From positions 1 to 64,000 of the IMG/VR virus record IMGVR_UViG_3300045988_147330: a stretch of 64,000 nt of DNA. One strand, written 5' to 3'. Source of the DNA: a virus. The translations under genes and the position numbers were made by a program. The notes beneath the pieces are model-generated. The model worked only from the letters and a program-made list of their open reading frames with translations, ran no database searches and had not been told where the DNA came from. Of the stretch, positions 1 to 61,767 are shown piece after piece. Position 1 is the first letter of the stretch; every line of letters starts with the position of its first letter.

Positions 1-90
1 TAAAGCCCCTCTGTCGGGCTAAAGCCCCTCTGTCGGGCTAAAGCCCCTCTGTCGGGCTAAAGCCCCTCTGTCGGGCTAAAGCCCCTCTGT
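1..90. repeat. 19-bp tandem repeat array, about 4.7 copies of TAAAGCCCCTCTGTCGGGC; each unit is a mini-hairpin (AGCCC/GGGCT)
   Basis: Units read at 1-19, 20-38, 39-57, 58-76 and a partial at 77-90. The period is not a multiple of 3, and TAG in every unit on the minus strand closes all frames, so it is non-coding. The array may continue left of the window. Confidence 0.9.
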
Positions 91-6738: not shown

Positions 6739-7512
6739 TTATTTGTTAATTTTACTGTAATATCGGCTGACAATATTATTTTTCTTGCTAGCCATGTCTT
6801 CTTCTCTCTTTCTATTTATGAATGATTTTACATCGCTAGAACCACCCTGTTCAGGAACAAAAGGATTAATACCATCCTTTGCATATTTAGTACAAGTTTC
6901 ATTGTACTTCCCTTGTATTTTCAGAAGAATACTTGTATCCTCTTCTTCGGGTGAAATTTGAATGTTCTCAAAAATGATGTTACGCAACAACTCATTAGGC
7001 ATTCCTGCTTCTGGACGTTTAATCAACTCAGATAGCTTATTGCGCTTTTCCGTTATAAGTTGCTTCTGTTTTTCCTCTTTTTCTTTGGCTTCAAAATCCT
7101 TCTTGAATTTTTCAAATTCTTCAAGTTTAGCCTTAACATCATCCGGCAGTTCAATTGGTTTTGGATCAGGTGTTGGGTGTGGTGCTGGAGTCGGGCTAGG
7201 GGGCGGTGTTGGAGTCGGTGCTGGAGTCGGGTGTGATTTTTCCCATTCCTTCTTCAAATTTGCAATTTCTTGCTCTTTGATTGCATCCCACTCTTTACGC
7301 TTGTCAGAAGCGAATGCTCTTACCTGACCTGCCACTGTGTTCTTTAAATGAGCAACAACACTTTCGTTCCAAAACGTTTCCGCATTTTCCTGCGGTGCGA
7401 ACGGTGAGAACTCATTGATTGTCTGTTCAATTGTACGATCTGTAATAACGGAGCTACTTTCTCCTAATGCATTCTTGATACCTTCAAAAATGACTTTTAC
7501 ATTTTCATCCAT
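6739..7512 (-). CDS. putative scaffolding protein
   Basis: Highly charged coiled-coil sequence with a Pro/Thr linker (PTPAPTPTPPPSPTPAPHPTPDPKP). First gene of the capsid operon. Confidence 0.5.
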   Translation of the reverse strand: MDENVKVIFEGIKNALGESSSVITDRTIEQTINEFSPFAPQENAETFWNESVVAHLKNTVAGQVRAFASDKRKEWDAIKEQEIANLKKEWEKSHPTPAPTPTPPPSPTPAPHPTPDPKPIELPDDVKAKLEEFEKFKKDFEAKEKEEKQKQLITEKRNKLSELIKRPEAGMPNELLRNIIFENIQISPEEEDTSILLKIQGKYNETCTKYAKDGINPFVPEQGGSSDVKSFINRKREEDMASKKNNIVSRYYSKINK

Positions 7513-21280: not shown

Positions 21281-21444
21281 AACAAATCACCAATTTTTAT
21301 GTTTTCCATATCCTCCTTGTCAGAGAAGAATATACGATCGTACTTTGTTTCACCAAACTCAACAAACATAGCAAGAACAAAATACTTGTTCAATACACTA
21401 TCGTACCCCTTATCGTAAATCTTGTTTATCTTCTTCGTCTTCAT
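21277..21444 (-). CDS. small hypothetical protein (55 aa, below the ORF-track cutoff)
   Basis: Translated by hand (MKTKKINKIYDKGYDS...). Fills the gap between dut and the next gene. Its stop overlaps the downstream ATG (ATGA). Confidence 0.4.
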   Translation of the reverse strand: MKTKKINKIYDKGYDSVLNKYFVLAMFVEFGETKYDRIFFSDKEDMENIKIGDLL

Positions 21445-21448
21445 TTAC

Positions 21449-21898
21449 CTAACCATTTGTATGACCAAAACCTCCTTCTCCTCTATCCGTTGGAGCAAGG
21501 CTATCAACCTCAACAAACTCAACATCAATATAATTACTGAAAAGAAGCTGTGCTACTCTTTCTTTAGCAGCAATATAGAACGGATCTTTCTCAAAACTTT
21601 TCACAATAACACCTATACCACCAGTGTAATCACAATCAATGACACCATCCAGAACATCAGCATCATGATATTTACCATCAACACCCAAAATTCCTTTCAA
21701 GGAAAATCCACTTCTAGCTTTAATAATGGATTTAATGCCATTTGGCATCTGAATAGCTATACCCAATTTAATAAGATTACGACCTTTTCTTATCAAAGTG
21801 TTGTCAGGAATATACAAATCGTATCCGGCAGCACCAACAGTTTTTTTTTCGGGCAAAACAGCATCCCGTCTTAATTTTACAAATTTTACTTGATTCAT
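21449..21898 (-). CDS. dut: dUTP diphosphatase
   Basis: AAGYDLY, ARSGFSLKG, IDCDYTGGIGVIV and RGEGGFGHTNG motifs. Confidence 0.9.
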   Translation of the reverse strand: MNQVKFVKLRRDAVLPEKKTVGAAGYDLYIPDNTLIRKGRNLIKLGIAIQMPNGIKSIIKARSGFSLKGILGVDGKYHDADVLDGVIDCDYTGGIGVIVKSFEKDPFYIAAKERVAQLLFSNYIDVEFVEVDSLAPTDRGEGGFGHTNG

Positions 21899-23139
21899 AA
21901 ATTTACTTGTATTCTCTTTTCAGTTAATATACTTTTCCTTGTAGATATCAATCGCAAATGCTTGCAATTAATAGAACCTTTATTCACTTTTGTTCCATCC
22001 AACCTCCTAATATCAAAGGAGCCATTACTTCTTCTTCCAAATATGTAATACAACTCTTTTTTGTATTCAACTAGGTCAAACAACCTAAAACCTTTCACTA
22101 AGAATGGTGCTTGATTGAGTTTCTTTCTGCCACCTTTCAAGAAATTAGCTTTGTGTATTTGTCTGTTTTGACAACGCACCTTCTTTTGATAGAAATAATA
22201 TCCAAGAGGTTTAGCCACAGGATTACCACTGATACACCTTGCATCCACATAATGATCTTTAGGGAGATTATTAGTGATACGGGTATTCTTCGTGATATAA
22301 CCAAAAGTCATACTTACATTAGGATAGATATTCTTTAGCCTATCATAGAAACTCCATCGCATAATTCCCATAAAGGCGGAATCTCTAAATGACTTCCCAC
22401 GCTTTACATTTAATTCAAGCTCACCTCTATGATATGCCTTATGGCAAGTTTCGCAAAGGGTAATCAAGTTGTTTGGGCTATCACCTCCAGTCTTTCTGCT
22501 CTCTATGTGATGCACATTCAAGACTTTATCTTTACTCTTACCCTTACAATGTTGGCAAGTATGATTATCTCTAAATAGCACATACTCACGCACATTGAAG
22601 AAATCAAGTTGTTCTCCTTGCTGGTATTCACTGCCGGATATACTTGGATTATTAATCTTCTGTATATCAAAAGAAGCCGTTTCAACTACGATATTAGTTA
22701 TCGGTAGGAACTTATGTATTTTCTCTACAACAGTCAAATGAGTTTGAATTTTGTTTTCAACAGATGGTACTAGCCAACCTTTACGCTTGGAAGATACCCT
22801 ATTATTGAAACGAGCCTTGCGATAACGAAGCCTACTCCTACGGGTTCTTCTTAATTCCCTACGAGTAGATAGCTTATCCACAATATCGTTTCTCAATTCC
22901 ACATCTGCTGCATACAATTCTTTTTCACTTGTTGTTGCCGATATACCGATATGCTTGCTACCAGCATCTACACCCAAACTTACGGGCTGTGTATAATCTG
23001 TTGTGTCATAATCCAATTGAATTGTGAACGGAATACGGCACACAACATGGGCTAGACTGTTTTTTAACAGCCTTCTCACCTTACCAAACCTTTCAGTTGG
23101 CATAAGTGCTTGTCCTTGTTTGTTAATTACGTAAACCAT
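21895..23139 (-). CDS. iscB: IscB RNA-guided nuclease (RRXRR/HNH/split RuvC), copy A
   Basis: 414 aa. PLMP-like QALMPTERF; RuvC-I LGVDAGSKHIG; Arg-rich bridge helix RRELRRTRRSRLRYRKARF; RuvC-II IVVETASFD; HNH CQHC..NVHHIESR..NNLITLCETCH; RuvC-III KDHYVDARC; C-terminal TID-like region. Confidence 0.85.
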   Translation of the reverse strand: MVYVINKQGQALMPTERFGKVRRLLKNSLAHVVCRIPFTIQLDYDTTDYTQPVSLGVDAGSKHIGISATTSEKELYAADVELRNDIVDKLSTRRELRRTRRSRLRYRKARFNNRVSSKRKGWLVPSVENKIQTHLTVVEKIHKFLPITNIVVETASFDIQKINNPSISGSEYQQGEQLDFFNVREYVLFRDNHTCQHCKGKSKDKVLNVHHIESRKTGGDSPNNLITLCETCHKAYHRGELELNVKRGKSFRDSAFMGIMRWSFYDRLKNIYPNVSMTFGYITKNTRITNNLPKDHYVDARCISGNPVAKPLGYYFYQKKVRCQNRQIHKANFLKGGRKKLNQAPFLVKGFRLFDLVEYKKELYYIFGRRSNGSFDIRRLDGTKVNKGSINCKHLRLISTRKSILTEKRIQVNL

Positions 23140-23356
23140 TAGTTTTTAATTTACTATAAGTCGGATTTCTCCGTTAAATGCTCATCGACAATGTTATGGA
23201 AAGGTTTTATATGCCAGCAACACTATTCCTACCCCACAGAATTGTTTAATCACTGACCTTAGAGCAAGGAGCTTGAGCAAACACCCCTTGGTAACTATAT
23301 ATTCTCTCCTAACGTAGCACCCGAAGTGCTTAGTCTTATCAACCTAGGATTTTACT
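23140..23356 (-). ncRNA. omega-RNA candidate of IscB copy A (scaffold 23140-23335, guide-position segment 23336-23356)
   Basis: 217-nt non-coding leader directly 5' of iscB. Conserved with the leader of copy B, including hairpins GCAC-TTYGG-GTGC and CAAGGGG...CYCCTTG. Confidence 0.6.
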
Positions 23357-23584
23357 TTAGTATGTGGGTAGTTGACTGCGTTCCTCCGTGTTTAATCTGA
23401 ATGCAGCCTCCCTAGCCTGATCCTTCGTCCTATACAACTCTATTTTTTCAAACATACGACCATCATCACAGTCATACGTACACAAGGTGACAGCCCACAT
23501 ATTACCACGGGGAGAATAAAAGTATTTCCCGTAATCAGGTCCCATAACCTTTCCGTCAATCTTGATTTCACCTCTTCTGTTCAT
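23357..23584 (-). CDS. hypothetical protein
   Basis: ORF track, 75 aa. Its 3' end shares AGTCAACTAC with the gene upstream of IscB copy B. Confidence 0.5.
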   Translation of the reverse strand: MNRRGEIKIDGKVMGPDYGKYFYSPRGNMWAVTLCTYDCDDGRMFEKIELYRTKDQAREAAFRLNTEERSQLPTY

Positions 23585-43470: not shown

Positions 43471-43564
43471 CATTGTGTTTAAGTGTAGAAGCTGACACAT
43501 CTATAACGAAAATTTAGGGGGAAGGCGTTCCCCCGATTTTAGTAACCGTAAAAGTGATAAAACA

Positions 43565-43768
43565 ATGATTCTACTAGAAATTTTTCAAAACTGCTTTATT
43601 GTAGGGTATGATGGAAAGAAAATACCCTTTGTAAAAGATAATTTCCTGTTTAGTGATACCGGGGAAAGATATATCTTGACCAACAAGGAAAACAGTGAAC
43701 AGGTTAGCCTACCGAAGCAATCGACAATAGTAATTAAACGTAATATTTTTCATGAAGGTATTGATTAG
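43565..43768 (+). CDS. hypothetical protein
   Basis: ORF track. Confidence 0.45.
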   Translation: MILLEIFQNCFIVGYDGKKIPFVKDNFLFSDTGERYILTNKENSEQVSLPKQSTIVIKRNIFHEGID

Positions 43769-44243
43769 AAAGGATTCAAGCGACATAAGAAACAGACTTG
43801 AACGGTTAGAGTACACCGCTTCCGAAAAATCGTTGGATGGATTTGGTGATGGCATCTTTGTAGACAAGTCAGATAATACTTTTCACGTGAAATCAGAGTG
43901 GGAAGTTATCCGTATGTTTCTTGAAACAGTAGATTGCGGAGATGACGAGAATATGTTTTTTGATTTTGTAGAAAACGATATAACGTCAATAACGCCAACA
44001 ATGCTAGGTAAATATAAATCTTTAATAAAAGTTGATAACTTTCCCATCATTAATACATCTAGCATTCAAGATGTGTTATACCGTGAAGATAGAGAACATA
44101 ACATCATAGAAGTTATTGTTGTTTCAGTGTATGGGATAAAGTTGAAAAGCATAAAAGATGTGGACTTTTCAGATCCTAATGTGGATACAATAATAGAGTA
44201 TATGAAATCGTTGCATAAACAACTAAAAGAATATATCAAATGA
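43752..44243 (+). CDS. hypothetical protein
   Basis: ORF track, 163 aa. Confidence 0.5.
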   Translation: MKVLIRKDSSDIRNRLERLEYTASEKSLDGFGDGIFVDKSDNTFHVKSEWEVIRMFLETVDCGDDENMFFDFVENDITSITPTMLGKYKSLIKVDNFPIINTSSIQDVLYREDREHNIIEVIVVSVYGIKLKSIKDVDFSDPNVDTIIEYMKSLHKQLKEYIK

Positions 44244-45021: not shown

Positions 45022-45486
45022 ATGAAGAAATTACGCAAGCAGCAGAACGATCTTATCAAGAAAGGTCGTATGGTTGAATGTTCTCGCGTAACAGCCAAGA
45101 TAAAGGAGTTCCAGGAAGCATATATAAAGGCTTATCCTGACGGTAAGTATGTAAGAGGTATGGAGATTATCAAAAAGATGTCAGATGATGAAAAAACTGA
45201 TTGGATGATGTATATTAATGCTATTGCTTTCTGTGCTGATATTATACATTCATCCTCTATTGAGCTTAATGAAATGCTAAAGAAGGTACTTCCAGGGTCT
45301 AGTCTTCAAATGTTTGAAACACTTGAAAAGGTAGGTACTATGGCAAAGAATCAAATTATGTGGATGGATAACAATGTGGATGAGGAATATCAGGACGATT
45401 TTGCCAAATATGCTGACGAGATAACCATTATGCTTTTATCATTTGTTAAAAATAAATTTTTGCCGCGAAAGTCAACTACTTACTAA
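45022..45486 (+). CDS. hypothetical protein
   Basis: ORF track 44968..45486; the Met at 45022 avoids overlap. The 3' end carries the AGTCAACTAC motif also found before IscB copy A. Confidence 0.5.
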   Translation: MKKLRKQQNDLIKKGRMVECSRVTAKIKEFQEAYIKAYPDGKYVRGMEIIKKMSDDEKTDWMMYINAIAFCADIIHSSSIELNEMLKKVLPGSSLQMFETLEKVGTMAKNQIMWMDNNVDEEYQDDFAKYADEITIMLLSFVKNKFLPRKSTTY

Positions 45487-45651
45487 GCTAAAGACTTGTA
45501 GATGTTGATTAGACTAAGCACTTTGGGTGCTACGTTAGGAGAGAATATATAGTTACCAAGGGGTGCTTGCTCAAGCCCCTTGCTCTAAGGTTAAAACCTC
45601 TCCATAACATTGTCGATGAGTATTTAACGGAGAAATCTGACTTATAGTAAA
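45487..45651 (+). ncRNA. omega-RNA candidate of IscB copy B (guide-position segment 45487-45511, scaffold 45512-45651)
   Basis: Collinear with the copy-A leader, apart from a 46-nt internal segment present only in copy A (23210-23255). Confidence 0.6.
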
Positions 45652-46896
45652 ATGGTTTATATAATTAACAAACAAGGACAAGCACTTATGCCAACTGAAA
45701 GGTTTGGTAAAGTGAGAAGGCTATTAAAGAATGGTCTTTCCCACGTTGTGTGCCGTATCCCATTCACAATTCAATTAGATTATGACACAACAGATTATAC
45801 GCAGCCCATAAGTTTGGGTTTAGATGCTGGTAGCAAGCATATCGGCATATCAGCAACAACAAGTGAAAAGGAATTGTATGCAGCAGATGTGGAACTTAGA
45901 AATGACATTGTAGAGAAACTATCTACTCGTAGAGAACAAAGAAGAACTCGTAGGAGTAGGCTTCGTTATCGCAAGGCGCGTTTCAATAATAGGGTTTCAT
46001 CTAAACGCAAGGGTTGGCTAGCACCATCTATTGAAAACAAAATTCAAACTCATTTGACTGTTGTAGAAAAAATACATAAGTTCCTACCGATAACTAATAT
46101 CGTAGTTGAAACTGCTTCCTTTGATATACAGAAGATTAAGAATCCAAGTATATCTGGAAGTGAATACCAACAAGGAGAACAACTTGATTTCTTTAATGTG
46201 CGTGAGTATATTTTGTTTCGTGATGGTTATACTTGCCAACATTGTAAGGGTAAAAGTAAAGATAAGATCTTGAATGTGCATCACATTGAGAGTAGAAAGA
46301 CGGGAGGGGATAGCCCAAATAACTTGATTACTCTTTGCGAAACTTGCCACAAGGCATATCATAGAGGTGAGTTTGAGTTAAATGTAAAACGTGGAAAGTC
46401 CTTTAGAGATGCCGCCTTTATGGGAATTATGCGATGGAGTCTCTATGATAGACTAAAGAATATCTATCCTAATGTAAATATGACTTTTGGTTATATCACG
46501 AAAAATACCCGTATCACTAACAATCTTCCTAAAGATCATTATGTTGATGCAAGGTGTATAAGTGGTAATCCTGTGGCTAAACCTTTAGGTTATTATTTCT
46601 ATCAGAAGAAAGTAAGATGCCAAAATAGGCAGATACACAAGGCTAATTTCTTAAAGGGTGGCAGGAAGAAACTCAATCAAGCACCATTCTTAGTGAAAGG
46701 TTTTAGGTTGTTTGACCTGGTTGAATACCAAAAGGATTTGTATTACATATTTGGAAGAAGAAGTAGTGGTTCCTTTGATATTAGGAAACTTGATGGAACT
46801 AAAGTGAATAAAGGTTCTATCAATTGCAAGTATTTGCGATTGATAGACAAAAGAAAAAGTATATTAACTGAAAAGAGAATGCAAGTAAATTTATGA
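45652..46896 (+). CDS. iscB: IscB RNA-guided nuclease, copy B
   Basis: 414 aa with the same motif set as copy A. 26 amino-acid differences by my count, all outside the catalytic motifs. Its stop overlaps the next ATG (ATGA). Confidence 0.85.
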   Translation: MVYIINKQGQALMPTERFGKVRRLLKNGLSHVVCRIPFTIQLDYDTTDYTQPISLGLDAGSKHIGISATTSEKELYAADVELRNDIVEKLSTRREQRRTRRSRLRYRKARFNNRVSSKRKGWLAPSIENKIQTHLTVVEKIHKFLPITNIVVETASFDIQKIKNPSISGSEYQQGEQLDFFNVREYILFRDGYTCQHCKGKSKDKILNVHHIESRKTGGDSPNNLITLCETCHKAYHRGEFELNVKRGKSFRDAAFMGIMRWSLYDRLKNIYPNVNMTFGYITKNTRITNNLPKDHYVDARCISGNPVAKPLGYYFYQKKVRCQNRQIHKANFLKGGRKKLNQAPFLVKGFRLFDLVEYQKDLYYIFGRRSSGSFDIRKLDGTKVNKGSINCKYLRLIDKRKSILTEKRMQVNL

Positions 46897-47093
46897 CACG
46901 AGAGGAAATACATAAAAACGTTCTTACAATAAGAAATTATTATTTCAGTATTCAAAACAAGCTAGATAATGGGTATAAAATTTCCGATTTGGATATAGAT
47001 TCGGAAACGCACAACAAAATGATTGATGATACCATAAAATCAGCCATTGAAGATTATAAAATGATTCTTGTTTTGGAAAAATACAAATTATAA
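46893..47093 (+). CDS. hypothetical protein
   Basis: ORF track. Confidence 0.45.
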   Translation: MTREEIHKNVLTIRNYYFSIQNKLDNGYKISDLDIDSETHNKMIDDTIKSAIEDYKMILVLEKYKL

Positions 47094-47970: not shown

Positions 47971-48069
47971 ATGCAAGACTATATTTCAGATTGGTTCATT
48001 CCTATGGATTTCGGTAATGATATGCCGGACGAAGAACCTAACGGTGAGGATAATTTTAATTTTGAATGA
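47971..48069 (+). CDS. conserved 32-aa acidic peptide, paralog of 49866..49958
   Basis: Hand-translated: MQDYISDWFIPMDFGNDMPDEEPNGEDNFNFE. The second copy is MQDYISDWFIPMDFGNDLPDEEPDYEDNFN. Confidence 0.4.
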   Translation: MQDYISDWFIPMDFGNDMPDEEPNGEDNFNFE

Positions 48070-48956
48070 ATATGGAAAAGAAATTTGAGCTAACAGATAA
48101 CTTTATAATCAATGCTTTTGGAGTGAAGTTATTCCAAATCAAGTGTACAAAGTCTTTCAAATATGCCAAGGAAGGTGATTTGGGAGGATATGTTGAGAAA
48201 GATGAGAACTTAGACCAAGAAAGCAATGCTTGGGTGTCCGGCAATGCTGAGGTGTCCGGCGATGCTTGGGTGTCCGGCAATGCTGAGGTGTCCGGCGATG
48301 CTCGGGTGTACGGCAATGCTCGGGTGTACGGCGATGCTCGGGTGTCCGGCGATGCTGAGGTGTCCGGCGATGCTCGGGTGTACGGCAATGCTCGGGTGTA
48401 CGGCGATGCTCGGGTGTACGGCGATGCTCGGGTGTACGGCAATGCTGAGGTGTCCGGCAATGCTGAGGTGTACGGCAATGCTGAGGTGTCCGGCAATGCT
48501 TGGGTGTCCGGCAATGCTCGGGTGTCCGGCAATGCTTGGGTGTCCGGCAATGCTGAGGTGTCCGGCGATGCTCGGGTGTACGGCAATGCTCGGGTGTACG
48601 GCAATGCTGAGGTGTCCGGCAATGCTTGGGTGTACGGCGATGCTTGGGTGTACGGCAATGCTCGGGTGTACGGCAATGCTGAGGTGTCCGGCAATGCTTG
48701 GGTGTCCGGCAATGCTGAGATAGACAACAATAATAAACATTGCGGATTTGACTGTTTCGGTTCTGCCAACCGCCACACCCATGCCTACCTGACAAAAGAA
48801 AACAAAGTGGAAATAACATGCGGATGCTTCCGTGGGAGTATTGAAGAGTTTGAAAAGAGAGTGGAAGAAACCCATTCGGGCACAATCTATGAGAAGCAGT
48901 ATAAAGCCATCATCGATGTTATTAAAATTAAATTTGGGTTGACTGATTTGATATAG
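48066..48956 (+). CDS. hexapeptide-repeat (left-handed beta-helix-like) protein with Cys/His-rich C-terminal domain
   Basis: 27 consecutive [N/D]A[E/W/R]V[S/Y]G hexads. Only this frame has non-repeat N- and C-terminal domains. Confidence 0.7.
   Translation: MNMEKKFELTDNFIINAFGVKLFQIKCTKSFKYAKEGDLGGYVEKDENLDQESNAWVSGNAEVSGDAWVSGNAEVSGDARVYGNARVYGDARVSGDAEVSGDARVYGNARVYGDARVYGDARVYGNAEVSGNAEVYGNAEVSGNAWVSGNARVSGNAWVSGNAEVSGDARVYGNARVYGNAEVSGNAWVYGDAWVYGNARVYGNAEVSGNAWVSGNAEIDNNNKHCGFDCFGSANRHTHAYLTKENKVEITCGCFRGSIEEFEKRVEETHSGTIYEKQYKAIIDVIKIKFGLTDLI
48225..48719 (+). repeat. 27.5 tandem 18-bp coding repeats RATGCTNNGGTGTMCGGC
   Basis: Every unit read. 14 of 18 positions are invariant in all 27 units. 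Variation is confined to positions 1 (A/G), 7-8 (GA/TG/CG) and 14 (C/A). Confidence 0.95.
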
Positions 48957-56753: not shown

Positions 56754-57482
56754 ATGAAAAATAACATTAATCCTTGGGAAGTGTTTGATGAGATTGAATG
56801 TTCCCATAATCCTGAATATATTGTTTGTGTGTCACATCTTAGACATTACACGAATATTTTTGGCATAGACAAAAGGCTTGTAGACTTTCTTGGAATGGAA
56901 AAGAATACAATATTAGATATCGAAACATTTTGTTTTGGCGGAATGGATGTTTTCGGAATAAAAGAAGATTGTGTATCTGTAATAGAAGATTGTAAAAGAC
57001 AAAGGGAAGCAAAGAAAGAAGCCTTGGAGAAAAACAGGAAATTGATAGCCATGCTAAAATTGAAACGTGAAAATATGTGCGGCATAGGTACAAGAAAGGT
57101 GAAATTACTGCTTAATAAAAAGATAAAACAAGGAGATTTTACAGCTAAAATTTACCGTGTTGCATTGGAATTACAAGATTATAATATAAAGGCTAAAGGT
57201 GCTCCGTTTCCTTACTCGGAAAAGATGTATGCAAAGAAAGAAGATTTGATTGATAAACTTATCGAATTATACAAAAATATACAACTACCTTTTGGTCGTT
57301 CAGAGGATAAAAATAAAAGAGTTTCTTTTATCGTATATTTTGATCTTCCTTTAGGTAATCAAATTAGTTTTCATTCTACAATAAAAAGAGATATACCTCT
57401 ATACGGGAAAGAGTGGGATGGATTGGTAAACAGTACATTGGACAAGTTAGAAAAAGAAATAAAACAATACTTAAACATTTAA
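56754..57482 (+). CDS. hypothetical protein
   Basis: ORF track, 242 aa. Confidence 0.55.
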   Translation: MKNNINPWEVFDEIECSHNPEYIVCVSHLRHYTNIFGIDKRLVDFLGMEKNTILDIETFCFGGMDVFGIKEDCVSVIEDCKRQREAKKEALEKNRKLIAMLKLKRENMCGIGTRKVKLLLNKKIKQGDFTAKIYRVALELQDYNIKAKGAPFPYSEKMYAKKEDLIDKLIELYKNIQLPFGRSEDKNKRVSFIVYFDLPLGNQISFHSTIKRDIPLYGKEWDGLVNSTLDKLEKEIKQYLNI

Positions 57483-57484
57483 TC

Positions 57485-58408
57485 ATGGGAAAGAATTTAC
57501 TTAATAACGATGGTAAAATTGCCTTGTTTCACGAAACGATAAGGCTTGACTTTAATCTGCCTAAATACTCCGTTATAGAGCAGAAAGATCCTAATCCAAG
57601 TGTAATGTCTTATGATTTTCTTAAACAGTACATGGAAAACAATGATAAGGAAGGAGTCGCGGAATTTAATCTTACCGTTTCACCGACAATGCTTGATTCT
57701 GTAAAAACAAACCAGGAGCACAATCAGGTAAGAACCTCTCTTTTTGACAGAAAACACAAGGAAAGTTCATGGTTGAAAAAAGTTAAGGATTATGTAGACG
57801 AATACAGAAGATCCAAGTTTGACGTAATACATTTCTTTTCTGAGGTTAAGATACAGACAGAGAACGAGATGAAGCAATACAGGGATAGGATAAAAGACTA
57901 TATACTGATGCTAGGTTATGCTGAAAGGTCCGGTCAATATGCCTTAAAAGAAAAGCTATTCCGAAACATGGTGATATGCAAATACGAAAGCATATTGTTT
58001 AGCAAAGGATTATACAAGGCTATATCAGAGGAAAATATTATGAAGTTTGCAAAAGGATGCCCGAAAAATCTATGCCTTGATTATATTTCTGACTATACTA
58101 GAATCATACCGTTTGACATAATTAGGAAAAAGACGGATATAGACAAATATGAAATCTTTGATAATTATGTTATCCTACACTACGATTTTGATAACAACGG
58201 AACAGATTTACCGTCTGACAAGAAAAAAGAAGAGGTGGAAAAAAGAAAAGACCCTATTCTGTTTGGTGTTATTGCAGGAAGTAACAAACTATACTTTATA
58301 GGTGATTGGATTGATGAGTATTGCGATTTGAGGTTCGATGATGTGGTAAAACAATGCACGGACGATTTCTTGTCAGAAAACATTTCTTTGGATGGTCTTG
58401 CAAAATAG
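57485..58408 (+). CDS. hypothetical protein
   Basis: ORF track 57413..58408; the Met at 57485 avoids overlap. Confidence 0.55.
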   Translation: MGKNLLNNDGKIALFHETIRLDFNLPKYSVIEQKDPNPSVMSYDFLKQYMENNDKEGVAEFNLTVSPTMLDSVKTNQEHNQVRTSLFDRKHKESSWLKKVKDYVDEYRRSKFDVIHFFSEVKIQTENEMKQYRDRIKDYILMLGYAERSGQYALKEKLFRNMVICKYESILFSKGLYKAISEENIMKFAKGCPKNLCLDYISDYTRIIPFDIIRKKTDIDKYEIFDNYVILHYDFDNNGTDLPSDKKKEEVEKRKDPILFGVIAGSNKLYFIGDWIDEYCDLRFDDVVKQCTDDFLSENISLDGLAK

Positions 58409-60687: not shown

Positions 60688-61767
60688 ATGGAAGATAAAG
60701 AAAAAACAATTCAGATTCTCGCTGAAACAATAGATAGGTTAAACAAGACGATAGAATCACAGAACAGGTTGATTGAGGATTTAAAAAACAGGCTTGAAAC
60801 AATTCAGAACGAATATAGCCCTTCAATTATGACTGTAGGCGTATTGATAGAAAAGTTGAATAATACAAAAACAAGAAGCGGAAAGGTAAGATATGAAGCA
60901 TTATCTAAACATATTATGCCATATCTTACCAATAATAGTTATGATGAATATGATTTTAATGATGTAATTCCTACTTTTAAGGAAATACCTTCTTTAGAAA
61001 GACCTGTTAGTCGTGATATGATAGATGATATGGTAAATGTAATTAAGTCAAAAAGGCGTGTAAGTGAATCATCTCAGAAATCATATCTATTAATGCTTAA
61101 ACGTATATTCTCAGAATCAAAAGATATGAGCGAATACATCAATGATTATATTGTATCACTTAACGTTAAATCTCCATCAAATATATCCCTTACAGAAGAA
61201 GAAATAGAACTTTTCTGGAATGTAGAACCATTTGATGTTACAGAAGAAATGGTAAAAAAATTATTTCTTATTCAATGCTACACAGCTATGAGATATTCTG
61301 ATATTTTCAGATTGAAGGATTCTATGATGAATAATAATGATAATGTTATTTCATATATATCTAAGAAAACTGGGAAAGTTGTAGAAGTACCTGTTCCGTC
61401 TAAAATAATTGAAATGATAAAGGAAGTAAGATCATTTGATAAATACAATATAGAATCAACCTTAAAGACTACTATGAATGAAATACTTCCAACATTAGGA
61501 TGTAGGGCTGGTATAAATAATCAGGTGTTTGTAAGAAGAGCTAACGTTCTTATGAAAGGTCCTAAATATCAGTTTATAAAAACACATACAGGACGTAGAA
61601 CTGCTATTACAAGATGGGCTAATATGGGAATACCAGAGGCCGAATTAAAATCTATGGCTGGGCATTCTGATATTAGGACCACAAATAGATATATTACTGC
61701 AAGTATATCAAATAAAACAAAGAAAATTTTAACAGATGATATATATGAAACAGGTATTGTCGATTGA
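60688..61767 (+). CDS. int: tyrosine recombinase/integrase
   Basis: C-terminal HTGRRTAITRWANMGIPEAELKSMAGHSDIRTTNRYI (HxxR...H...Y). Upstream Arg in AMRYSDI. Confidence 0.85.
   Translation: MEDKEKTIQILAETIDRLNKTIESQNRLIEDLKNRLETIQNEYSPSIMTVGVLIEKLNNTKTRSGKVRYEALSKHIMPYLTNNSYDEYDFNDVIPTFKEIPSLERPVSRDMIDDMVNVIKSKRRVSESSQKSYLLMLKRIFSESKDMSEYINDYIVSLNVKSPSNISLTEEEIELFWNVEPFDVTEEMVKKLFLIQCYTAMRYSDIFRLKDSMMNNNDNVISYISKKTGKVVEVPVPSKIIEMIKEVRSFDKYNIESTLKTTMNEILPTLGCRAGINNQVFVRRANVLMKGPKYQFIKTHTGRRTAITRWANMGIPEAELKSMAGHSDIRTTNRYITASISNKTKKILTDDIYETGIVD

Follow-up and report, generated by a model that had tools for sequence, protein, structure and literature searches.

A 64,000-nucleotide stretch of viral DNA (positions 1 to 64,000 of the IMG/VR record IMGVR_UViG_3300045988_147330; hereafter the window) carries, between a short phage gene and the dUTPase gene on its minus strand, a complete unit of an IscB nuclease and an omega-RNA, which we call element A. 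The window is part of a tailed gut Bacteroidales phage of ~99 kb (GC 35.7%). The region is probably a non-autonomous element of the IS200/IS605 insertion sequence family, of the OMEGA type (short for obligate mobile element-guided activity), which homes between phage genomes. The unit itself appears to be a textbook non-autonomous IS605-type IscB unit that is, or was, a transposon, and it most likely persists by cutting phage genomes that do not carry it. We infer its expression, guide length, cleavage and homing between phage genomes from sequence. A second copy in the same window, element B, differs from element A in its flanks and in the length of its RNA.

The IscB nuclease and its omega-RNA

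The identification of the 414-amino-acid (aa) open reading frame (ORF) of element A as IscB, preceded by an omega-RNA leader, is secure. All motifs quoted in the initial annotation of this DNA were located, in the stated N- to C-terminal order: QALMPT (residues 10–15), DAGSKHIG (58–65), an arginine-rich segment (93–114), VETASFD (152–158), CQHC (195–198), HHIESR (210–215), CETCH (229–233) and DHYVDA (295–300). A Pfam search supported the proposed domains, with a match to the whole of RRXRR (PF14239; E = 6e-63, model positions 1–174 of 174, residues 2–175) and a match to HNH (PF01844; E = 2.2e-10, residues 195–238) placed between RuvC-II and RuvC-III. OgeuIscB-type chains in the Protein Data Bank (PDB) matched residues 1–335 at 3.6e-53 (phmmer), and their RuvC-I Asp, RuvC-II Glu, HNH His and RuvC-III DHY.DA positions align with those of the phage protein (GiDpG, vlEln, HH and DHYlDA against GvDaG, vvEtA, HH and DHYvDA). 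These catalytic residues are invariant in a family alignment of 14 sequences. A profile of the family matched the PDB IscBs at 1.5e-66, with the alignment ending at about residue 337. A single-sequence AlphaFold2 model had a pLDDT (predicted local distance difference test) of 32.5, and all IscB homologues returned by a large protein search were at least 95% identical, too close to deepen the alignment.

At 414 aa the protein does not fit type II CRISPR-Cas9, with its CRISPR array, tracrRNA, adaptation genes and large REC lobe; Cas9-type PDB chains match small parts of it only, and the match of YnpsCas9 is limited to residues 50–114. No repeat array was found near either copy, in a survey with no search aimed at Cas1 or Cas2.

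The leader matches the Rfam family HEARO (RF02033) along the full model (positions 1–211) with 116.2 bits and E = 2.6e-23, well above the gathering score of 83, in agreement with its earlier reading as an omega-RNA. HEARO is nowadays known as the IscB omega-RNA. The scaffold makes up the first ~200 nt of element A, and a linker reaching 23140 joins it to the IscB ATG. In an alignment of 36 phage and cellular relatives, 26 of the 34 predicted base pairs show compensatory changes, and RNAalifold recovers the main helices. The core of the RNA is kept while dispensable hairpins are lost. Omega-RNA B, which scores below the gathering threshold (Table 1), is missing one hairpin, equivalent to 46 HEARO model positions; the same deletion occurs in several relatives with an intact IscB, such as L084, which suggests that this hairpin is dispensable.

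Purifying selection acts on IscB. The nonsynonymous rate (dN) between copies A and B is 0.035 and the synonymous rate (dS) 0.41, which gives a dN/dS of 0.084; across 1019 pairs the median ratio is 0.12.

Parabacteroides phage PF672P2 (L001, OP172820) is the one cultured relative that resembles the window in DNA sequence. It carries a solo omega-RNA, a complete HEARO match of 130 bits with an intact right-end hairpin, which directly abuts AAATT/ATGAA at an unrelated 121-aa gene. There is no IscB anywhere in the PF672P2 genome. This RNA resembles a PATE (palindrome-associated transposable element), and GenBank places a reverse-strand 'hypothetical protein' over it.

Element boundaries, candidate guides and insertion sites

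In published IscB systems the omega-RNA scaffold derives from the right end (RE) of the transposon, and the guide is the sequence 5'-adjacent to it, outside the element (Meers et al., preprint PMC10055086). It follows that transcription has to come in from beyond the element, and the genes upstream tend to share its orientation (PMC10055086). GstIscB, encoded by ISGst5, recognises the target-adjacent motif (TAM) 5'-TTCAT-3', from which the motif at the element end differs at positions 3 and 5; it cuts the vacant site, and the element is restored by recombination (PMC10055086).

Homology between copies A and B ends exactly at the boundaries of element A given in Table 1. The element sits precisely 5' of ATGAA, without target duplication, co-oriented with the operon. 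Vacant sites in relatives place its first bases, GTCAAC, at 23376, so guide A would be the 16–20 nt of flank upstream of this position; the length of 16 nt used here is an assumption. Guide A is thus phage DNA, the 3' end of the upstream gene. The initial annotation had let the leader begin right after the stop codon of that gene and had sought the guide at 23336–23356. Both points need correcting: the first base of the RNA is 23376, a position 20 nt inside the upstream ORF (23357..23584), and comparison with vacant junctions places 23336–23356 inside the element, as the 3' half of the first omega-RNA stem. The last six codons of the upstream gene (SQLPTY) and its stop come from element A, and the opening stem of the scaffold also closes the upstream reading frame.

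At the other end, ATGAA (21898–21894) is host DNA that includes the start codon of dUTPase together with two bases of the stop of IscB, and the TGA itself (21897–21895) falls in host DNA within the TAM. The overlap between the IscB TGA and the ATG of the next gene had been noted before and holds, and Pfam identifies that gene as a dUTPase. ATGAA is the reverse complement of TTCAT, the GstIscB TAM, and the element end on the TTCAT strand, TTGAC, differs from it at positions 3 and 5. The 414-aa form has lost its left-end hairpin, so that the reading frame of IscB extends to the TGA within ATGAA.

ATGAA occurs 288 times in the window, yet insertions were seen only at co-oriented gene starts. This distribution fits selection against disruptive insertions together with a need for read-through transcription. 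Many genes of an AT-rich phage begin with ATGAA, and ATGA is the usual overlap of stop and start codons. The initial annotation had described a seamless splice into a co-oriented operon; the insertion is real, and its seamlessness is largely due to the coincidence of the TAM with gene starts in an AT-rich genome.

The initial annotation had also treated locus A alone. The second copy, at 45471–46892 (+), is 87.7% identical to unit A in nucleotides. Locus B is vacant in the relative L028, where the clean junction reads ...GCCGCGAAA followed by ATGACACGAG (with a longer flank, ...TTTTTGCCGCGAAA followed by ATGACACGAG) and the upstream gene ends in ...LPRK-TGA, overlapping the next ATG. Guide B has an exact target with ATGAC in L028, one with a single mismatch in L003 and one with two mismatches in L002. 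The window itself holds two vacant sites that are occupied by IscB elements in relatives (Table 1), and neither guide A nor guide B has another TAM-flanked match inside it. Just inside the gene that starts at one of these vacant targets (151–147, minus strand) lies a perfect 19-nt tandem repeat, TAAAGCCCCTCTGTCGGGC, with 4.7 copies at window positions 1–90 and a period not divisible by three; at this place relatives (L091) show another repeat, of 20 nt.

IMG/VR contains 194 close relatives of the element, and ends and flanks were mapped in the 80 of these loci that were fetched. Read along the IscB strand, the unit always begins on the left with G or A followed by TCAACTACCCA (TTAAC at one site), that is with (G/A)TCAAC, and finishes on the right with ...AAATTT, giving the overall pattern (G/A)TCAAC...AAATTT/ATGA. 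To the right stands ATGA in nearly every copy, usually as ATGAA, the start of a co-oriented phage gene; two flank clusters have ATAA instead. About 20 different right flanks occur, with roughly as many left ones, and nearly all IscB ORFs of the relatives are intact. The empty sites that the earlier insertion proposal called for exist in other phages of the family: clean vacant junctions, consisting of the left flank and ATGA with nothing duplicated, were found at five sites, including B.

The more distant 418-aa relatives L058, L067 and L081 carry matching subterminal hairpins (CCCACA..TAAAGA..TGTGGG) at both the left end (LE) and the RE, one of the features that place the unit in the IS605 type. 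In these 418-aa relatives the end hairpins have fold energies of -14 to -23 kcal/mol; the corresponding values for the window copies are 0 to -2.9 kcal/mol. The window copies are thus derivatives of a hairpin-bearing IS605-type transposon and not intact ones, and such a loss of the TnpA-binding hairpins is unusual. In line with the initial annotation, Pfam found no Y1 transposase TnpA (PF01797) among the 57 window ORFs of 100–270 aa; a crude HUH/Y motif screen of 1315 ORFs within 6 kb on either side of ~100 phage loci, a weak test, returned no TnpA either. From this absence it had been concluded that the arrangement looks less like a transposon. That conclusion does not follow, as tnpA lies near only ~1.5% of iscB genes (PMC10055086), and the unit has the exact IS605 architecture, with the omega-RNA at the RE, the LE at a TTCAT/ATGAA TAM and no target duplication at ~20 sites.

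Table 1. Positions of the elements, their parts and neighbouring features (window coordinates unless a relative is named).
Feature	Position	Strand	Basis or remark
Element A, complete IscB-omega-RNA unit, 1478 bp, GTCAACTACCCA...GCAAGTAAATTT	21899..23376	-	Insertion-site comparison, vacant sites
Omega-RNA scaffold A (Rfam HEARO)	23173..23376	-	Covariance model match
IscB ORF A, 414 aa, ATG start	21895..23139	-	Pfam, PDB search, motifs, dN/dS
Candidate guide A, AACACGGAGGAACGCA	23377..23392	-	Position 5' of RE; published IscB architecture; boundary mapping
TAM of element A, ATGAA	21894..21898	-	Mapped insertions, vacant sites
Upstream phage gene, 75 aa	23357..23584	-	Relatives match residues 1-70 only
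dUTPase gene	21449..21898	-	Pfam dUTPase, 1.1e-26; start inside TAM
Element B, second copy, 1422 bp	45471..46892	+	Homology to A, boundary mapping
Omega-RNA scaffold B	45471..45628	+	HEARO, 79.1 bits, E 1.1e-15, below gathering score 83
IscB ORF B, 414 aa	45652-46896	+	93.7% aa identity to A
Candidate guide B, AATTTTTGCCGCGAAA	45455..45470	+	Flank 5' of element B
TAM of element B, ATGAC	46893-46897	+	
Vacant target GGTTAGGTAA followed by ATGAA, dUTPase/next-gene junction	21440..21454	-	IscB element there in L084, L051
Second vacant target ..AAATAATT followed by ATGAA	147..163	-	IscB element there in at least 14 related contigs
Locus-A remnants	L088, 6745-8545 region; L097, L098, about 6775-6890		
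Solo omega-RNA of PF672P2	L001 3965-4178; about 57570-57783 of OP172820		HEARO match
331-aa neighbour of integrase	57413-58408	+	PHROG 'transposase' family, 1.3e-11; no Pfam match
Tyrosine integrase	60688-61767	+	Pfam Phage_integrase, 4.5e-15

Proposed homing, recombination and competing explanations

Read-through transcription of the phage operon would yield a transcript in which the ~16 nt at the 5' end, copied from the phage flank, act as the guide. Together with this RNA, IscB would cut phage genomes that hold the uninterrupted flank followed by ATGAA, be it in a co-infecting relative or a sister molecule, while an occupied site, in which the flank is followed by GTCAA and not ATGAA, would be protected. 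Recombinational repair with the occupied genome as template would then copy the element in, a step for which the phage could draw on the YqaJ-type recombination exonuclease that Pfam identifies in the window. The net outcome would be homing, or a gene drive, among phage genomes. Moves to new ATGAA sites would need a Y1 TnpA in trans and intact end hairpins; since both window copies have lost these hairpins, they could spread by homing or general recombination only.

Cleavable targets exist in the population, because the uninterrupted 16-nt flank followed by ATGA and A, T, C or G was found with 0–2 mismatches in other phages of the family for most insertion sites (16 of the 32 flank clusters), and as an exact flank with ATGA at four sites. 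Occupied sites have GTCAA or ATCAA after the flank in place of ATGAA; given the published sensitivity to single-base changes in the TAM, this would protect the element's own genome. Among the sampled relatives locus B has a matching vacant target and locus A currently none. Only one match above 72% identity to the IscB, on a 39-kb contig of a metagenome-assembled genome, was found among 185,579 species genomes. The exact IscB proteins were found only on metagenomic contigs of 50–200 kb, and both copies lie together on one ENA contig of 99,076 bp. The IscB lineage thus appears to be essentially confined to phages.

Several observations weigh against this account or complicate it. No vacant target matching guide A and the TAM was found among IMG/VR viruses; the nearest alleles have two mismatches with ATGGG, or a diverged flank with ATGG, and an IMG/VR scan for ACGGAGGAACRCAATGA gave 19 matches, all in unrelated contexts resembling ribosome-binding sites and none at the junction of the 75-aa gene and the dUTPase gene. 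At the locus-B target, nucleotide diversity among nine vacant genomes is not in excess (0.10–0.14 against a background of 0–0.26) and gives no hint that cutting is being evaded; all variants seen in the final four codons are synonymous, which is not exceptional there. Neither window copy has subterminal TnpA-binding hairpins at its LE or RE. An identical left-end deletion junction is present at at least 15 sites, which homing alone does not explain, and in many occupied alleles the element stands in place of neighbouring genes and not in a clean junction. Finally, the C-terminal ~80 aa of the protein (residues ~338–414), a putative TAM-interacting domain (the 'TID-like tail' of the initial annotation), although kept within the IscB family, show no sequence alignment to the PDB IscBs.

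The gene-replacing alleles suggest recombination between copies no less than homing. The copy in L028 (5794–7245) has left and right flanks from two different sites and replaces what is 43506–44239 in the window; because it joins the flanks of two sites, recombination between copies is a major process. Flanks of mixed sites with the intervening genes missing were also noted in L033 and in flank clusters 8, 10 and 15. Such copies look like the products of recombination between copies that deleted phage genes. At locus A, relatives without the complete element take three forms: a direct junction that has diverged (ACGGATGTTAAAA ATGG...), the same flanks with an additional gene of ~450 nt between them (ACGGAGGAACACA ATGGG ... 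AAAAA ATGAATCAAG), and an internally deleted remnant of 120–140 nt that consists of the two ends of the element (L088, L097, L098). L088 also has a second IscB and HEARO unit, 49% identical, after codon 36 of its dUTPase gene, the rest of which is missing.

Phage-to-phage RNA-guided homing is plausible on these comparative data. A more specific version of it is tentative, and we would not yet put it ahead of its negation: a phage-restricted IscB-omega-RNA lineage may have given up TnpA-dependent transposition and now act as an RNA-guided gene drive among co-infecting Bacteroidales phages, with ATGAA starts as TAMs making insertion translationally silent and with recombination between copies reshuffling or deleting neighbouring genes. 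If true, it would provide the first example from nature of OMEGA homing from one virus to another.

It is unlikely that the element is instead a stranded passenger, that is, an IS605-type IscB element of the bacterial host which entered the phage, lost its end hairpins and is now inert, carried vertically and without present function. The loss of end hairpins from both window copies, the lack of a target for guide A, the remnants at the same site in three relatives, the solo omega-RNA of the isolate PF672P2 and the unremarkable diversity at the locus-B target would all be expected of such a passenger. It is harder to reconcile with a dN/dS of about 0.1 across copies diverged to a dS of about 0.4, with nearly all IscB ORFs being intact, with an omega-RNA whose core is kept as dispensable hairpins go, and with a lineage that is abundant in phages and nearly absent from bacterial genomes.

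Somewhat more doubtful still is a domesticated phage weapon or regulator, in which IscB and the omega-RNAs destroy competitors, by interference and not by homing, or carry out another RNA-guided task. Two copies give one genome two guides, these match essential gene junctions of related phages, the elements appear immobilised, and interference between phages by intron endonucleases is known, as cited in the review PMC13565253. However, the guides are merely insertion flanks, as in any IS605 element, no retargeted guide or guide array was found, no tandem array lies near either copy, and a relative that is cut and has homology around the site would as a rule be converted by homing. A third alternative is a free-standing, protein-guided HNH homing endonuclease, as is usual in phages, whose structured leader is unrelated. 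Suggested by the labels 'HNH endonuclease' and 'NinG recombination protein' that GenBank and nr give to homologues, it is highly improbable and was rejected by the domain tests (a full RRXRR/RuvC architecture split by HNH that aligns to solved IscBs) and by the RNA-family test (a HEARO leader with covariation).

Relation to known systems and other features of the phage

The element most resembles the ISGst5-type element of Geobacillus stearothermophilus. Both have a HEARO-type omega-RNA at the RE with a guide from the flank 5' of it, a TTCAT TAM (ATGAA on the IscB strand) adjoining the LE, an end motif that matches the TAM except at positions 3 and 5, an interior that lacks tnpA, and upstream genes in the same orientation. 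Unlike ISGst5, the phage element resides in a viral replicon, with close relatives found almost only in phage contigs; the hairpins bound by TnpA are gone from both ends of the window copies, whose LE deletion puts the IscB stop inside the TAM. With the OgeuIscB-omega-RNA complex (PDB 7UTN, 7XHT, 8CSZ) the phage IscB shares the order PLMP, RuvC-I, bridge helix, RuvC-II, HNH, RuvC-III and an omega-RNA of about 200 nt. It differs from OgeuIscB in length (414 against 496 aa), in the absence of ~30 residues after the bridge helix, in its non-aligning C-terminal ~80 aa and in its probable TAM, ATGAA, against NWRRNA as given in PMC12660989.

TnpB drives insertion sequence elements through multicopy plasmids, according to bioRxiv 10.1101/2025.02.20.638934. 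As proposed here for IscB, an RNA-guided nuclease cuts the element-free multicopy replicon and repair copies the element in without TnpA; the TnpB drive was shown on plasmids, whereas homing of the phage IscB is deduced from comparative genomics. Phage homing endonucleases (T4 Seg/Mob, HNH and GIY-YIG enzymes, free-standing or intron-borne) are likewise encoded between conserved phage genes; some relatives have them and others do not, and in mixed infections they should spread and leave mosaic flanks. These enzymes find their targets by protein contacts and use no guide RNA, whereas the IscB element would use an RNA copy of its flank and a 5-nt TAM. TldR, a nuclease-dead, TnpB-like RNA-guided repressor, is another OMEGA-family protein carried by phages. 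It is a dead TnpB derivative retargeted to a host gene, in contrast to the phage IscB with its intact catalytic motifs and a guide that would be its own flank.

The accepted role of IscB is to restore its transposon after excision in bacterial chromosomes, and RNA-guided homing is thus already an accepted IscB function; the new part would be the phage-to-phage setting, the element itself being of a known kind in an under-described niche. The initial annotation did not regard a homing or competition role in phages as established, and no report of IscB homing in phages was found in the full-text literature searched, mostly outside subscription journals, which is weak evidence. A 2026 review (PMC13565253) describes 'non-restorative homing' and regards homing into phages that co-infect a cell as no more than theoretically possible. 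HEARO appears, uninterpreted, in a listing for Silviavirus genomes, TnpB is on record for a cyanophage and for an epsilon crAss-like phage, and virus-enriched TnpB branches have been described. GenBank phages with IscB homologues include Clostridium phage c-st, Ralstonia, Silviavirus and Nodularia phages and gut 'Bacteriophage sp.' records. The best matches in a protein search of the GenBank phage collection are at most 56% identical, and a DNA similarity search of the same collection gave a sole match, the omega-RNA of PF672P2.

A 95%-identical copy of IscB A in nr (P0072) is named 'NinG recombination protein', and the GenBank phage homologues are called 'HNH endonuclease' or 'hypothetical protein'. 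Such naming is a systematic mis-annotation or under-annotation of phage IscBs, and the IscB identity explains this recurrent error ('HNH endonuclease', 'NinG') in gut phages. With hundreds of near-identical elements at ~20 gene junctions, matching vacant targets in sister genomes, copies with and without transposase-binding ends and a cultured phage, PF672P2, that has a solo omega-RNA, the family is a natural test bed. Its compact 414-aa IscBs, naturally minimised omega-RNAs and apparently simple TAM may also interest genome-editing work.

Apart from the genes discussed above, the window encodes a large terminase, a major head protein, a D5-type primase, a helicase, a clamp and a tyrosine integrase. 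The integrase suggests that the phage may be temperate. Pfam matches among the ORFs of 100–270 aa include a Tad2-like anti-Thoeris domain, two SocA/Panacea antitoxin-like proteins and the YqaJ recombinase, as well as KilA-N, a crAss001_48-related protein, DUF4494, DUF5675 and YopX. An 18-nt unit repeated 27.4 times (88% matches) at 48223–48716, within the plus-strand ORF 48066–48956, encodes a hexapeptide-repeat protein (..VSGNAEVSGDAR..), and several frames on both strands are open across the repeat.

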